64,000 bases of DNA from the NCBI GenBank assembly GCA_041650515.1, contig JBAZLA010000002.1, forward strand, positions 103,659 to 167,658. Reading direction: 5' to 3'. This stretch comes from Patescibacteria group bacterium (GTDB lineage Bacteria; Patescibacteriota; Patescibacteriia; JACRDY01). Positions 10,995 through 63,530 of this stretch are shown piece after piece (position 1 is the first letter of the stretch; every line of letters starts with the position of its first letter). Position numbers and translations under genes: made by a program. The notes under the pieces are model-generated. The model did no database searches. It had not been told where the DNA came from and saw only the letters and a program-made list of their open reading frames with translations.

Positions 10995-11588
10995 ATGACT
11001 AACAAAATTCTCCAAACTTCTTTTTATAACCGACCAACACGTCAAGTTGCCCAGGATCTCCTGGGTAAAATTATTATCCGTCAAATCGGCCGCAAAAAAT
11101 ATTACGGCCTTATTACCGAAACTGAAGCTTATTGCGGGCCTCAGGACCAGGCCTCCCACGCTAGCAAAGGCCGCACCCCACGCACCGAGGTAATGTTTGG
11201 CCCAGCCGGCCACACCTATATCTATCTGATTTACGGTCTGTATCATTGTTTCAATATTGTCACCGAAAAAAAAGACTACCCAGCCGCGGTCCTGATCCGT
11301 GGCGCCCTCCCCTTACCAAAGGAATGGTTGGGTGGGGTTACTCTGCCCCTTTCCAAGAGGGAGATGGCCGAAGGCCAGAGGGGGTTAGCTAGTGGCCCAG
11401 GCAAACTCTGCCGTTATTTTAAAATTGATAAAACACTAAATAACCTCGATATTACTAAACCCAATAAACTTTGGCTGGTCGACAGCGGGCTAAAACCCCA
11501 AAGAATCATTCGCCGGCCTCGGGTCGGCGTTGATTACGCTGGTAAATACAAAGACAAAAAATGGCGGTTTATTACCCGATTTTCTTGA
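10995..11588 (+). CDS. mpg: DNA-3-methyladenine glycosylase (Mpg/AAG family)
   Basis: ATG overlaps TAA of upstream gene (taaATG); motifs GLITETEAYCGP, MFGPAGHTYIYLIYG, AVLIRGA, GPGKLC typical of Mpg family. Confidence 0.85.
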   Translation: MTNKILQTSFYNRPTRQVAQDLLGKIIIRQIGRKKYYGLITETEAYCGPQDQASHASKGRTPRTEVMFGPAGHTYIYLIYGLYHCFNIVTEKKDYPAAVLIRGALPLPKEWLGGVTLPLSKREMAEGQRGLASGPGKLCRYFKIDKTLNNLDITKPNKLWLVDSGLKPQRIIRRPRVGVDYAGKYKDKKWRFITRFS

Positions 11589-12168
11589 TACTATTTCTAT
11601 CTTCATCCCAATTTAAAGGATTATTGATAATATATTCGCTGATTTTTTGGTATTCTATTTGATTACGAATAATGTGTTCGTAATAATTTCGTTGCCATAA
11701 TCGTTGATCAAACGGCGACCAATTATTTTGTTTAACGTTTTTAATATATTCGTTGGTGGACATGGTTTTGAACCATTGCACCACCCGGGGTATTAATTGT
11801 TGGGAACGACGTAGGGGCAGACCCGGCGGTATTGGCAGACCTCTGTGTCTGCCCTGTTGGTTCGGGCAGACACAGAGGTCTGCCCCTACGTCGTCGATAA
11901 TTTCCACAATTCCATGAATATGATTTGGCATAACCACAAACACACCCAATCGAATGGTCAAAAATTTGTTCGGTAGTTTAGACCACCATTTTTGTGCCAT
12001 CCGACCCGCCGGATTTAAAATCATTCCCCCGTTTTCCACCCGACCGAATAAATAAACCATATTTTGGCTACAGATGGTAATGAAATATTGCCCCATTCCC
12101 GAATAATCATAATCGGGCAAGCGGATAGAACGACGGTGATGGTAATCGGGGTTATACATAGATAACAA
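11572..12168 (-). mobile_element. REP-associated tyrosine transposase (RAYT / IS200-like Y1 HuH transposase) gene with intragenic REP-like insertion
   Basis: HuH motif MPNHIHGIVEI and catalytic Tyr motif EYIINNP; about 30 extra residues (VGADLCVCPNQQGRHRGLPIPPGLPLRRS) between the two motifs are encoded by a GC-rich compound palindrome. Confidence 0.75.
11806..11894. repeat. GC-rich REP-like compound palindrome (BIME-like) inside the RAYT ORF
   Basis: Outer 18-bp perfect inverted arms acgacgtaggggcagacc / ggtctgcccctacgtcgt; inner units ggcagacctctgtgtctgccc and gggcagacacagaggtctgcccc are reverse complements of each other; GTAG/CTAC tetranucleotides flank the hairpins as in REP sequences. 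Confidence 0.8.
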
Positions 12169-38619: not shown

Positions 38620-38666
38620 AAATAAATCAAAAGTTAAAAATCAAAAGGCAAAAGTTAAATTCAAAA

Positions 38667-39278
38667 TTAAAAATTAATAACTTTTGACTTATGATTCACA
38701 ATTTTGACTTTTGAATTTTGACTTTTGAATTTAATCGGGCCAACTCGCAGCACTTCGACTCGACCACGGACAACTTTAACCAAAGTTGAAGGTTTAACTC
38801 GTTTCAGCGTGCCGCTAGCCAAAATTAAATCTGGCTGTTGTTTTTGGTGACTAAATTCTTTAATTATTTTTTTTACTTGATAAATATTATTGCGGCCGGT
38901 GATGTTAGCTGAAGTGGCAATCAACGGCCGACCAACCCGACGAGCTAACAACTGCGCCACCCCATTTTGGGGCACCCGAATAGCAAACCGACTGCTGACT
39001 ACCACCGACAACGGTCCGGGCCAATGTTTCTCAGCTAAACTCTCGGCGGTTGGATCTAATTTAAAAAACTTTTTTACTTGGGCCAAATTAGCGGCCACTA
39101 GGGTAAATTTTTTATCTTGGCGTTTTTTAATTTTTAAAATTCGTTTAGTTACTGCCGGGGAATCAAAAATACCGCCCAAACCATAAGCCGTGTCGGTAGG
39201 ATAAAAAATCACCCCACCGGATTTCAAAATTTTCACCGCTTGCTCAATCCCCTTTTTATTGGCTTTAACCACTAACAT
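38667..39278 (-). CDS. tsaC: L-threonylcarbamoyladenylate synthase (YrdC/TsaC)
   Basis: GGVIFYPTDTAYGLG, SANITG motifs of YrdC/Sua5 fold; C-terminal KSQNSKVK repeats encoded by ttttgac tandem repeats. Confidence 0.85.
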   Translation of the reverse strand: MLVVKANKKGIEQAVKILKSGGVIFYPTDTAYGLGGIFDSPAVTKRILKIKKRQDKKFTLVAANLAQVKKFFKLDPTAESLAEKHWPGPLSVVVSSRFAIRVPQNGVAQLLARRVGRPLIATSANITGRNNIYQVKKIIKEFSHQKQQPDLILASGTLKRVKPSTLVKVVRGRVEVLRVGPIKFKSQNSKVKIVNHKSKVINF

Positions 39279-39280
39279 AA

Positions 39281-39345
39281 TTACAAATTAATAATTACGA
39301 ATTACAAATTAAAATTTAATATTTACCAATTCGTAATTCGTAATT
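39281..39345. repeat. AT-rich inverted repeat built from tandem heptamers between epimerase and tsaC
   Basis: taattacgaattacaaatt ... 17-nt loop ... aattcgtaattcgtaattt (18/19 complementary); similar looser symmetry at 38626-38728 spanning tsaC stop. Confidence 0.6.
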
Positions 39346-39346
39346 T

Positions 39347-40270
39347 TTAATTATTTTTAAACCAATCAACCGTCAACTTAATTCCCTGATCTAAATTAAC
39401 TCTTGGCTGCCAGCCTAGCTCTCGGCTAATTTTGGCAAAACTTAAACAACTCCGTCGCTGTTCCCCCACTTTAGCTGGACCATGAACCTCTTTGATTTTA
39501 ACATTTAAAGCCTGACTAACTTTAGCAAAAATCTGGTTAACACTAGTTTGCTTAGCCGCCCCCACATTATAAATACCAATTTTTTTACTCTTCAAAGCCA
39601 AAAGATTGGCCCTAACGACGTCACCAACATAGACATAATCGCGAGTCTGTAAACCATTGCCATTAATAATCGGCTGCTGACGCTGTAAAATTTTATTAAT
39701 AAAAATTGCCACCACCCCGGCTTCACCCAGGGCATTTTGGCGCGGGCCATAAACATTGCCATAACGCAAGACGGTATAGGCTAAACCAAAAATCTGCTGA
39801 TAATAATTAAGATAATGCTCTACCGTTAACTTATTCAGGCCATACGGCGCTAGCGGCCAGGTGGGCTGGTTTTCTTTGGTTGGCAATTTATTTAACGGTA
39901 AATCGCCATAGATCGCGCCACCCGTAGAAGCAAAAATTATCTTTTTAACTCTGAACTGACGACAGTTTTCTAATACATTTAGCGAACCCAAAATATTAGT
40001 CTTGGCATCCCAAACCGGATCATCAACTGACTTACGCAAGTCAATCTGCGCCGCGAGGTGAAAAACAATGGCTGGTTTTTCTTTTTTAAAAATCTGACCC
40101 AGCTTTTTGTCCTGAATATCTAGCCTATAAAATTTAGCTTTAGAATTTATAAACTCCCTCCGACCGGTCGACAAATTATCCACCACGACAACTCGGTGCT
40201 GCTGTTTAATTAAGGCATCAACAATATGAGAGCCAATAAATCCCGCACCGCCAGTAACTAAAATTTTCAT
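39347..40270 (-). CDS. NAD-dependent sugar epimerase (UDP-glucose 4-epimerase-like SDR)
   Basis: MKILVTGGAGFIGSH Rossmann motif, YxxxK catalytic region (YGLNKLTVEHY). Confidence 0.8.
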   Translation of the reverse strand: MKILVTGGAGFIGSHIVDALIKQQHRVVVVDNLSTGRREFINSKAKFYRLDIQDKKLGQIFKKEKPAIVFHLAAQIDLRKSVDDPVWDAKTNILGSLNVLENCRQFRVKKIIFASTGGAIYGDLPLNKLPTKENQPTWPLAPYGLNKLTVEHYLNYYQQIFGLAYTVLRYGNVYGPRQNALGEAGVVAIFINKILQRQQPIINGNGLQTRDYVYVGDVVRANLLALKSKKIGIYNVGAAKQTSVNQIFAKVSQALNVKIKEVHGPAKVGEQRRSCLSFAKISRELGWQPRVNLDQGIKLTVDWFKNN

Positions 40271-56925: not shown

Positions 56926-56993
56926 ATCCTTTTTAAAATTAAGAATTAAAAACTAAGAATTAACAACTAGCTTCTTGACACCACTATAAGTTA

Positions 56994-57419
56994 TTAATTC
57001 TTAATTATTAATCGTTTGAATGTCCAATAACGGTGCACCAAAAAGCTCCAAGCTAAAGAAATTGCAATGCCCACCATTTTAGCTAATAGATCATAGAATC
57101 CGAAGTGTTCAACCAAAATATACAAGGTTGATTCCACAATTGCCAAAGCCACCAAACTAACTACCAAAAACTTGCCATACTGACGGTAAAATCTTCCCGG
57201 TTCACGATTTTCAAAGGTCCAAAATTTGTTAACCCAGAAACTAAAAAAATTAGCAACTAAGAAAGATATAATGTTAGCGACCAGGTAATTTTTGGCCCAA
57301 AATGGCCAAATTCTAGTTAAACTGATATACACTGAAAAATCAACCCCTGTATTAAGTAAACCAATTAGACAGAATTTGGTCAATTGTTTGAAAGTACTAG
57401 TATTGATCAGGCTATTCAT
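56994..57419 (-). CDS. GtrA-family membrane protein
   Basis: KFCLIGLLNTGVDFSVY GtrA signature, 4 TM helices, 141 aa. Confidence 0.75.
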   Translation of the reverse strand: MNSLINTSTFKQLTKFCLIGLLNTGVDFSVYISLTRIWPFWAKNYLVANIISFLVANFFSFWVNKFWTFENREPGRFYRQYGKFLVVSLVALAIVESTLYILVEHFGFYDLLAKMVGIAISLAWSFLVHRYWTFKRLIIKN

Positions 57420-62128: not shown

Positions 62129-62220
62129 ATCTCCAGCACCCCACCCTGTCCCTCCCCTTAGCAGGGGAGAATGCGTCTCCTCCCCTGCTAAGGGGAGGGA
62201 CAGGGTGGGGTGCTGGAGAT
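62129..62220. repeat. 92-bp perfect GC-rich palindrome (41-bp arms, 10-nt spacer)
   Basis: atctccagcaccccaccctgtccctccccttagcaggggag / aatgcgtctc / ctcccctgctaaggggagggacagggtggggtgctggagat; arms are exact reverse complements; 14 nt upstream of DUF559 start. Confidence 0.9.
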
Positions 62221-62281
62221 CGTTTTGAAAATACAAAAATAGAGTCTATCTCAACTCTACTATCTTAAAGATTAAATTTTT

Positions 62282-63094
62282 CTAAAGTTTCACCACCTGG
62301 CGCTGCCGTTTGGTGAATTGAATATATTCGCTGTAGCCGACTGCCTTAGCCAGAGCCAAGGCTTGGTCAAAATATCGCCCAATCCGATCTGGGCTGTGCG
62401 CATCCGAGCCAAAAGTAATCGGCACCCCGGCTTTAAATAGCGCAATTAAAAATCCTTTACTCGGATAAATCTCCTGACACGGCGCTTCCAACCCGCTGGA
62501 ATTAATCTCAACCACTACCCCGGTTTCTTTAAACACTTTAGCGGTTTGGTTAAATACGTCAGTCAAATCACCCTTGGGTTTGGGCGCATATTTTTTAATC
62601 AAATCCGGATGAGCCATAATATCAAACAGCCCGGTCCGCGCTGCGTCTTGCAGTAATTGGTGATAAGTTTGAAACAATTTATCCGGATCCAAGAGAGCAA
62701 TTTTATCCCGTTCATAATAATAATGCCCGTTATCAAGATAATTTTTCTCATCATCGCACTGCCAATTACCAATATAGTGAATCGCGCCCAAAATATAATC
62801 CAGCTCAGACAAATATGGCTCGAGTATTTTCACCACTTGGGAATGATAATCGGGCAAATAATCCACTTCCATCCCCCATTTGATACTGAGCTTGCTTGTT
62901 TGTCTAGTTTGTTTAACTTTTTCCAAAATCTGCGATATCTCGCTAGCTTTACCCGACCACTCTGGCTCATCAAAAGAAAAATGATCAGAAAACCCAATTT
63001 CCGTCATTCCTTTTTCTTTAGCTCCGACCACCATTTCAAGGTGACTATTGTAACCATCGGAAAAAGTGGTGTGCATGTGATAATCAGCAAGCAT
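62282..63094 (-). CDS. PHP-family histidinol-phosphatase-like protein
   Basis: MLADYHMHTTFSDG PHP motif, further His/Asp metal ligands (GFSDH, HPD, GSDAH). Confidence 0.75.
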   Translation of the reverse strand: MLADYHMHTTFSDGYNSHLEMVVGAKEKGMTEIGFSDHFSFDEPEWSGKASEISQILEKVKQTRQTSKLSIKWGMEVDYLPDYHSQVVKILEPYLSELDYILGAIHYIGNWQCDDEKNYLDNGHYYYERDKIALLDPDKLFQTYHQLLQDAARTGLFDIMAHPDLIKKYAPKPKGDLTDVFNQTAKVFKETGVVVEINSSGLEAPCQEIYPSKGFLIALFKAGVPITFGSDAHSPDRIGRYFDQALALAKAVGYSEYIQFTKRQRQVVKL

Positions 63095-63104
63095 ACTTAT
63101 TTTT

Positions 63105-63530
63105 TTAAACTACACTTCGACAATTTTTGCTCCCACATTTGCATTTCATACCTTTAATAGTACTATATTCTTGAAAATAATTTCCGGTTATTTCTTCGCC
63201 TTTTCTAATCTTTTTAACTGCCACATCGCAAAAATTCTTAACATGCGTATTGGGATCACAAGAATGATTAATAAATCTTTCTGGCGACCGCAAAATAGCA
63301 TATTTACCACGACCCAAACAAATTGTGTGCTCTTTTTGCCAAGTTGAGAGATTATTTCTTTGTTGCTTAGAAACTATCCTATTTAAATTCCATCGTAAAA
63401 TCACTTCCCCCTTTTTGTACTCTCGCGCGGCAAATACTCCTCGCCCACTAATTTTTGATTTTTTAACTATCACATCAGACATATTTTTTCTTAACTCAAG
63501 TCCCTGGTTAATCACCATCTGCCCTCTCAC
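63105..63530 (-). CDS. SET-domain protein (putative protein-lysine methyltransferase)
   Basis: GRGVFAAREYKKGEVI, RFINHSCDPN, GEEITGNY and post-SET CKCGSKNC; true start may be the internal MSDVIV (63482). Confidence 0.7.
   Translation of the reverse strand: MRGQMVINQGLELRKNMSDVIVKKSKISGRGVFAAREYKKGEVILRWNLNRIVSKQQRNNLSTWQKEHTICLGRGKYAILRSPERFINHSCDPNTHVKNFCDVAVKKIRKGEEITGNYFQEYSTIKGMKCKCGSKNCRSVV

Follow-up and report, generated by a model that had tools for sequence, protein, structure and literature searches.

A perfect palindrome of paired triplex-type repeats upstream of a DUF559 gene in a Patescibacteria genome

We find that a perfect palindrome upstream of a DUF559 gene in a Patescibacteria genome consists of two head-to-head repeats, each arm of which is, by its sequence pattern, a complete three-block G/C-rich intrastrand triplex motif of the class known as BoxC, PIT element, or TM. 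By comparing loci, we show that such motifs are associated with DUF559 genes in an oriented and position-constrained manner, and that motif module and gene are inherited together beside unrelated neighbors. Our leading interpretation, held with about as much confidence as doubt, is that the palindrome is an inverted TM pair that would form the upstream end-module of a DUF559 gene-plus-repeat unit and whose arms have been homogenized. The palindrome does not represent a novel kind of repeat, since both the motif class and its pairing in inverted orientation have been described before. What we did not find described is its oriented association with DUF559: no report of a link between DUF559 and these repeats appeared in the searchable open-access papers and preprints, or in Holder et al. 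(PMC4666352).

Palindrome structure and motif class

The window, which is the whole 64-kb stretch of DNA analyzed here, carries the palindrome between a PHP-family gene and the DUF559 gene, both on the minus strand (Table 1). Its arms (62129-62169 and 62180-62220, 41 nt each) are 100% complementary, bearing out the exact palindrome with 41-bp arms and a 10-nt spacer reported in the initial annotation. That annotation also placed it correctly beside the DUF559 start, although we count 13 nt to the ATG and not 14, and correctly described a GC-rich palindrome in an AT-rich intergenic region (64% GC, compared with 23% in the remainder of the region). Each arm contains an inner hairpin, CTCCCCT-TAGC-AGGGGAG. 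A 22-nt arm core occurs twice in the window, both times as a palindrome arm (chance expectation, 0), and the same two arms are the only G-quadruplex-type runs in the 64 kb. No second copy of the palindrome was found in the window, and the sequences flanking it (...GATATTC / CGTTTTG...) share no direct repeat that would mark a target-site duplication. When only Watson-Crick pairing is considered, the palindrome folds as RNA with an energy of -111 kcal/mol (z = -14.6 relative to shuffled sequences) and as DNA with z = -15.2. The best homolog of the PHP-family neighbor is 49% identical and lies on a 1.4-kb contig. Just upstream of the PHP-family gene is a gene for a SET-domain protein (PF00856, E = 1.6e-14; 63105-63530, minus strand).

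Table 1. Coordinates of the palindrome, its parts, and the adjoining features within the 64-kb window
Feature	Position	Strand	Remarks
DUF559 gene, Vsr-like PD-(D/E)xK, 124 aa	61741..62115	-	Sole DUF559 gene in the window
Perfect 92-bp palindrome: head-to-head pair of intrastrand-triplex-type repeats	62129..62220	.	41-nt arms, 10-nt spacer
Outer arm extension past the triplex motif	62129..62137	.	ATCTCCAGC, pairs with GCTGGAGAT at 62212-62220
Gene-proximal triplex motif	62138..62170	-	Three-block finder, 0 triplex mismatches; G4-type run
Palindrome spacer, non-palindromic, 10 nt	62170..62179	.	AATGCGTCTC on plus strand
Gene-distal triplex motif	62178..62211	+	Exact inverted copy of the proximal motif
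AT-rich leader from boundary motif to palindrome	62221..62267	-	Aligns with locus L257 despite different upstream genes
19-nt TTTAGAAAAATTTAATCTT over the PHP stop codon	62268..62286	-	Identical at the start of the L257 intergenic region (about 1299-1317)
PHP-family histidinol-phosphatase-like gene	62282-63094	minus	Upstream of DUF559

Perfect arms of this length might be created during assembly as an inverted-repeat chimera, since short-read assemblers can mis-join inverted repeats. The inner hairpins and spacer are supported by the metagenome-assembled genome (MAG) alone, while the joins between arms and flanks are supported by two assemblies. In the MAG, the DUF559 protein comes from a contig of 243.5 kb. 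In the Logan assembly of SRR8542065, the contig carrying the PHP-family gene stops 30 nt into one arm and the contig carrying the DUF559 gene begins 30 nt into the other, and the two terminal 30-mers are reverse complements of each other. Contigs from a de Bruijn (k-mer) graph end like this where a genuine inverted repeat exceeds k in length. This second assembly joins each arm to its own flank. In addition, the palindrome is internal, with a different unique sequence on each side, and homologous paired modules occur in independent genomes. An artifact, which had been named at the outset as one outcome that might undo the observation, is thus hardly credible.

The palindrome is also very unlikely to be an intrinsic transcription terminator of the PHP-family gene, another option raised at the outset. 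It does offer a GC-rich hairpin 61 nt past the stop codon of that gene. However, the minus strand has no T-run after the palindrome (the sequence there is GAATATCTAAGTT), a scan for promoters and terminators made no call at the palindrome, and a 41-bp stem far exceeds terminator size. Earlier work in E. coli, as summarized in PMC4666352, likewise found neither promoter nor terminator activity for TM elements. In Rfam 15, no family reached its gathering score for the palindrome; at a permissive threshold, generic miRNA-hairpin models alone were returned, on both strands and far below their cut-offs.

We assign the arms to the triplex class using our own three-block finder, which searches for three successive blocks, a C-rich stem followed by its G-rich complement and then by the G-rich mirror stem (stems of 6-15 nt, loops of 1-6 nt, at most one mismatch). 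It detected one motif in each arm (stems of 8-9 nt, loops of 4 and 3-5 nt, 0 triplex mismatches) and none elsewhere in the 64-kb window. Shuffled sequence yields one motif per 215 kb. On the DUF559 strand, the proximal motif comprises a C-stem CCCTCCCC(T), a loop, G-stem 1 (A)GGGGAGGG, the loop ACA, and G-stem 2 GGGTGGGG. G-stem 2 mirrors G-stem 1, with T opposite A as an allowed triad. The motif has the same orientation as DUF559 and ends 22 nt from its ATG.

Holder et al. 2015 (PMC4666352) described the three-block pattern 5'-CCCTCNCCC-N3-6-GGGNGAGGG-N3-GGGNGAGGG under the name TM, with TMECO for the E. coli motifs; BoxC and PIT element are earlier names (Bachellier, Hoyne and Maher, as cited there). 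In the ITxF scheme, G/C-rich repeats of this kind are class II. These repeats have been known since the 1990s and are abundant in enterobacteria and cyanobacteria; the triplex class is described from E. coli and cyanobacteria, inverted pairs included (PMC4666352). TMs are intergenic and number 23 in E. coli MG1655, where five pairs are in inverted-repeat configuration. They fold to triplexes in vitro (CD and NMR for TMECO), and mark unusually variable regions with local rearrangement and a "palindrome effect" at inverted pairs (PMC4666352). In E. coli, Holder et al. found no tie between TMs and gene classes or mobile elements (PMC4666352).

The strict TMECO consensus, searched as a regular expression, has no match on either strand of the window, and the arms therefore belong to the general class and not to the narrow TMECO family. 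A BLAST search with the palindrome against 5,426 E. coli genomes returned no match, because the E. coli motif is too divergent in sequence. As in the class at large, the window motifs are intergenic and form a closely spaced inverted pair, although the dispersal typical of the class is absent from the 64-kb window, which holds this pair alone. The REP-like half of the initial proposal of a MITE/REP-type element is thus supported by the class membership of the arms; the MITE half is not, given the lack of a target-site duplication and of a second copy in the window.

Repeats of other kinds are also present in the window. A 198-aa IS200-like Y1 transposase or RAYT-like ORF (11572-12168, minus strand) has a weak Pfam Y1_Tnp match to its C-terminal half alone. 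Inside its reading frame lies a palindrome (11829-11889; 26-nt arms, 92% complementary) that is translated as ...GADLCVCPNQQGRHRGLP.... This GC-rich palindrome differs in sequence from the one upstream of DUF559, as had been noted. The accompanying idea of a second family of GC-rich palindromic inserts in this genome finds no support, with one pair alone in the 64-kb window. AT-rich inverted repeats of AATTACGAATTAC-like units (20-30-nt arms, 79-92% complementary) are found at 38622-38705, 39274-39357, and 56932-57012.

Association of the motifs with DUF559 genes

By sequence, the protein encoded next to the palindrome is a member of the DUF559 family (PF04480, 103 bits) and not Vsr proper. 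It scores 19.1 bits in the Vsr test (TIGR00632, cut-off 97.85) and 60 bits with the E. coli YcjD model (cut-off 218). Its alignment has twelve invariant columns across 43 homologs, and its nearest solved structure is the uncharacterized 3HRL. The DUF559 clade includes Vsr and the group I intron homing endonuclease I-Bth0305I (PDB 3R3P; PMC3424549). A PADLOC check for defense systems returned weak nuclease-domain similarity alone. Ten DUF559 homologs (P0015, P0021, P0025, P0029, P0061, P0078, P0098, P0105, P0111, and P0118) have N-terminal extensions that resemble translated GC-rich hairpin repeats (e.g., PLPRGGREG and SPLSRGERDRVR). This suggests that their start codons have been called too far upstream, a small consequence for annotation.

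We compared 80 DUF559 loci from many phyla, representing the best matches to one DUF559 subfamily. Short hairpins cluster next to these genes, with pyrimidines in the 5' arm and purines in the 3' arm (about CCYCYCCTT-loop-AAGGRGRGG). Each is adjoined by a third block, which either resembles GGGTGAGG and lies 3' of the hairpin or resembles the complement and lies 5' of it. At least one motif is present near DUF559 in 59 of the 80 loci. Motifs within 200 nt of DUF559 number 143 (4.53 per kb), compared with 48 in the other 383 kb (0.125 per kb). Similarly, 92 of 142 DUF559-adjacent intergenic regions bear a motif (65%), compared with 11 of 152 other intergenic regions of the same loci (7%; odds ratio 24, Fisher P about 1e-26).

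The motifs are strongly oriented relative to the gene. The nearest upstream motif within 45 nt points towards DUF559 ('+') in 28 cases and away from it ('-') in 3. On the downstream side, again within 45 nt, the nearest motif faces the gene ('-') 39 times and the opposite way ('+') 5 times. An inward layout, [TM->] gene [<-TM], is found in 28 of the 80 loci. The third, purine block is often at the position of a ribosome-binding site; in 21 loci it ends 0-15 nt ahead of the likely start codon, commonly with the sequence GGAGG or GAGG. The two motifs of one locus are 79% identical, compared with 66% between loci, and in 22 loci a motif's own partner ranked 1-3 of 29. Long repeats, direct or inverted, also flank DUF559 on either side at several loci. 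A tie between the palindrome and the adjacent nuclease-fold gene, proposed from the single site, thus recurs as an association across these loci, while action of the nuclease on the repeat would be a further step.

Similar repeats do flank other DUF559 genes, as had been suggested for checking, but the motif is far commoner than the gene, much as REP elements outnumber their transposase. DUF559 lies within 900 nt of a motif at 2 of 83 metagenome sites among the matches listed, and at 0 of 57 viral sites. In motif-rich contigs and genomes, motifs bracket many unrelated genes. The form CCYCACCC-NNN-CCCTCYCCTT occurs 57 times in IMG/VR contigs (L082-L135), mostly with a complementary arm; this set includes a very uniform ...CCCATCCCCACCCCNNCCCTCCCCTTGAAGGGGAGGG type, and none of the 57 adjoins DUF559.

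Some loci have further features. In L008, L034, and L044, DUF559 and its motifs appear, from reading frames and translations alone, to lie inside type I restriction-modification operons, between the apparent methylase and specificity genes. L025 has flanking DNA in common with L008 and L034. In one deltaproteobacterial MAG, a 1.8-kb segment recurs on two contigs with 99.6% identity (L023, 557-2373; L036, 3-1819). Downstream of this segment lie two DUF559 paralogs with just 70% identity between them.

The association might be a passive by-product of fragile DNA. That is, horizontally acquired DUF559 genes would land or survive at fragile repeats, and a functionless palindrome would arise there by template switching at hairpins during replication. 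Rearrangement and the "palindrome effect" reported at inverted pairs (Holder et al., PMC4666352) are consistent with such a process, as is the variety of genes that adjoin motifs in motif-rich genomes. Near-perfect inverted pairs (35-38 of 41 positions) are also common in some metagenome lineages. However, the tight constraint on orientation and distance relative to DUF559 is not expected of chance landing. The window contains no other motif, and therefore no local pool of target sites is visible. In addition, homologous module and leader sequences are retained beside unrelated neighbor genes, with a distal arm that is better conserved than the protein (see below). We thus regard a by-product as an unlikely explanation.

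Closest relatives, E. coli ycjD, and possible mechanism

We examined the surroundings of the DUF559 genes whose proteins are most similar to that of the window (51-59% identity). In L257, another Patescibacteria genome, the DUF559 protein is 58% identical. Here, an unrelated upstream gene is followed by the 19-nt TTTAGAAAAATTTAATCTT, an AT-rich leader, an inverted motif pair with imperfect arms, and then ATGGGTCAG. Over about 40 nt, the distal arms of the window and L257 agree at about 90% of positions. Both local hairpins are retained, as is the outer stem, the latter with a compensated change (CCGGC/GCCGG in L257, CCAGC/GCTGG in the window). The purine block ends about 40 nt from the ATG. 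Because the 19-nt TTTAGAAAAATTTAATCTT is identical at the start of this homologous intergenic region, the DUF559 unit may have its left end there, although the string may instead be a promoter. Strings similar to it are present in L258 and L259.

The other relatives exhibit a range of layouts. L264 has a '-+' inverted pair with imperfect arms and a 15-nt spacer (24-25 nt in L257), located 13 nt from the ATG, and has no downstream motif. L258 and L263 have a split layout with one motif on each side of the gene, L262 has an upstream pair of opposite polarity, and L259 has tandem truncated units upstream of DUF559. In L259 (890-1020), a truncated 52-nt unit, AACCCCACCTGTCCTCCCCTTGGAAG..., is repeated three times in tandem, and the last copy alone has a complete hairpin. 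The neighbor genes differ in every relative, and therefore the module goes with the DUF559 gene.

The initial annotation had read the perfection of the arms as a sign of very recent origin or active maintenance. We find a recent origin of the pair unlikely, since this inverted-pair module, though with imperfect arms, also lies upstream of the DUF559 genes of L257 and L264, whose proteins are only 52-58% identical to that of the window. If the pair is old, its perfect arms point to homogenization or maintenance. In a survey of 166 inverted pairs from all sequences fetched, a match at 41 of 41 arm positions is unique to the window, and the next best pair has 38. This uniqueness, together with the age of the paired form, leads us to prefer homogenization of the two ends over a new duplication.

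The module might instead act at the RNA level, which we also judge improbable, to about the same degree as a passive by-product. The transcript shared with the PHP-family gene would fold into a 41-43-bp hairpin, or into two small hairpins and an outer stem. It could separate or insulate the cistrons, for example, as a site for a double-strand RNase or as a 5' stabilizer, and the purine block ahead of the start codon would set the translation of a potentially toxic nuclease. The great stability of the fold supports this view, as do the placement of the purine block in the 21 loci described above and the retention in L257 of the local hairpins and outer stem with one compensated change. However, a 5' leader does not explain the mirror-orientation downstream motifs (39 of 44 within 45 nt). 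Mismatches compatible with G-U pairing on the sense strand are not clearly in excess (19 vs 12), and a recurrent G-A mismatch tracks the strand of the element itself in both orientations. The purine block is also far from the ATG, ending 22 nt away in the window and about 40 nt away in L257. Finally, no Rfam family reached threshold, and neither promoter nor terminator activity of TM elements was found in E. coli (as summarized in PMC4666352).

We therefore return to the gene-plus-repeat unit as our leading interpretation. In such a unit, the module would travel with DUF559 as the terminal repeats of a selfish cassette. The nuclease may act at the motifs, whether as duplex, hairpin or cruciform, or triplex, and so copy or insert the unit. 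Gene-less [TM->][<-TM] pairs, the classic BoxC arrangement, could be derivatives of the unit or its target sites. The window layout, [<-TM][TM->] gene, might be a circular permutation of the usual layout in which the two ends abut, and conversion between these ends, as opposed to a new duplication, could have made the arms perfect. The proximal arm probably also provides the 5' leader and ribosome-binding region of DUF559. Several observations weigh against such a unit. The motif is far commoner than the gene and brackets many unrelated genes in motif-rich genomes, and in E. coli Holder et al. saw the repeats tied neither to mobile elements nor to classes of genes (PMC4666352). The window itself has neither a downstream motif nor a target-site duplication. 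Two further objections come from the DUF559 gene of E. coli.

In E. coli K-12 (NC_000913.3; locus L260, 1351200-1351830), this gene is ycjD (1351407-1351760). TMECO no. 9 (1351204-1351239) lies about 170 nt downstream of it, the ycjD stop codon is inside a degenerate motif-like hairpin, and a roughly 40-nt duplicate of the ycjD 3' end lies between the stop codon and TMECO no. 9. ycjD is present in 3,378 of 5,426 complete E. coli genomes and is single-copy in nearly all of them; it is therefore not visibly mobile in E. coli, which argues against a mobile unit. According to a published survey, ycjD is found in phylogroups A, B1, and C, and the eefRABCD operon occupies that site elsewhere. Among 60 evenly spaced E. 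coli records, ycjD-positive genomes have 12-31 motif-type places and ycjD-negative genomes have 1-20 (ST131, 1). Published motif counts are 19-30 in K-12-, B-, and 55989-type strains and 0-2 in strains including CFT073, UTI89, and IHE3034 (PMC4666352), with 6-15 in others including 042, UMN026, IAI39, SMS-3-5, and Xuzhou21 (Holder tables, PMC4666352). The relationship between ycjD presence and motif number fits a partnership of nuclease and repeat. However, the comparison is confounded by phylogroup and ancestry, and thus is not independent evidence; moreover, ycjD-negative genomes keep motifs, at up to about 20 loci, which also weighs against such a unit.

A broader proposal is that DUF559 proteins are the cognate nucleases of BoxC/PIT/TM repeats. 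In this case, [TM->] DUF559 [<-TM] would be an autonomous selfish element, gene-less BoxC pairs would be its derivatives or homing sites, and nuclease action on the folded repeats would lead to the genome instability reported around them. We offer this proposal tentatively, as a possibility that the comparative data leave well short of probable. Under it, a Vsr-like correction of T:G to C:G on fold-back arms might keep the arms GC-rich and perfectly matched.

The oriented, cross-phylum association with DUF559 suggests a candidate enzyme for repeats whose origin, spread, and function are unexplained, and may help to explain how the long-puzzling BoxC-type repeats arise. For DUF559 itself, a large family whose function is unknown, the association would offer an initial clue to function.

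Comparison with known systems

Several known systems share features with the arrangement described here. Like integron cassettes, it involves small ORFs separated by imperfect palindromic sites, in an order that looks circularly permuted. In contrast to attC sites, however, the repeat sequence is conserved across cassettes. We rejected an integron attC, as the palindrome ends ATCTCCAGC...GCTGGAGAT (ATCTCC...GGAGAT) lack the GTTRRRY / RYYYAAC core sites.

The Vsr-like homing endonucleases, such as I-Bth0305I, belong to the same structural clade and are likewise small, selfish nuclease genes at varying intergenic sites. The window DUF559 gene differs in having no intron or intein and no defined cleavage site. 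To our knowledge, the known homing endonuclease genes are not bounded by repeats.

Inward terminal inverted repeats of about 35-40 nt and gene-less pairs are shared with insertion sequences (IS) and MITEs, and the abutted ends with their short spacer resemble an IS circle junction. We know of no case in which a 120-aa nuclease alone transposes. Unlike IS and MITEs, the unit has no target-site duplication, no recognized transposase, and no multi-copy identical units that we could see. A classical MITE was rejected: inverted arms are present, but a target-site duplication and a second copy in the window are not.

There is also a parallel in organization with REP/RAYT systems, where short palindromic repeats are likewise much more numerous than the single small nuclease gene. 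That gene lies between inverted repeats in REP/RAYT systems and in 28 of 80 DUF559 loci, although in the window both motifs are upstream of DUF559 and none is downstream. The enzymes differ, as DUF559 has a PD-(D/E)xK Vsr-like fold and RAYT an HUH Y1 transposase fold. An HUH Y1 (IS200-like) enzyme was rejected for the palindrome, since the adjacent protein is DUF559 (PF04480). The repeats also differ: three-block motifs here, compared with a hairpin and GTAG tetranucleotide in REP.

The closest match is to BoxC/PIT/TMECO, despite some differences. The window stems are 8 nt (GGGGAGGG / GGGTGGGG) compared with the 9-nt GGGNGAGGG of the E. coli consensus, and the window arms are identical whereas every E. 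coli pair joins a type A motif to a type B motif. The window has a single site in 64 kb of AT-rich Patescibacteria DNA, while TMECO is a dispersed family, and the DUF559 link is absent from Holder et al. (PMC4666352). The two nevertheless share the three-block plan, in which short loops separate a C-rich stem, its G-rich complement, and the G-rich mirror stem, and in both the G-rich part fits the G-quadruplex pattern. Both are also intergenic, G/C-rich in any genome background, and found as closely spaced inverted pairs.
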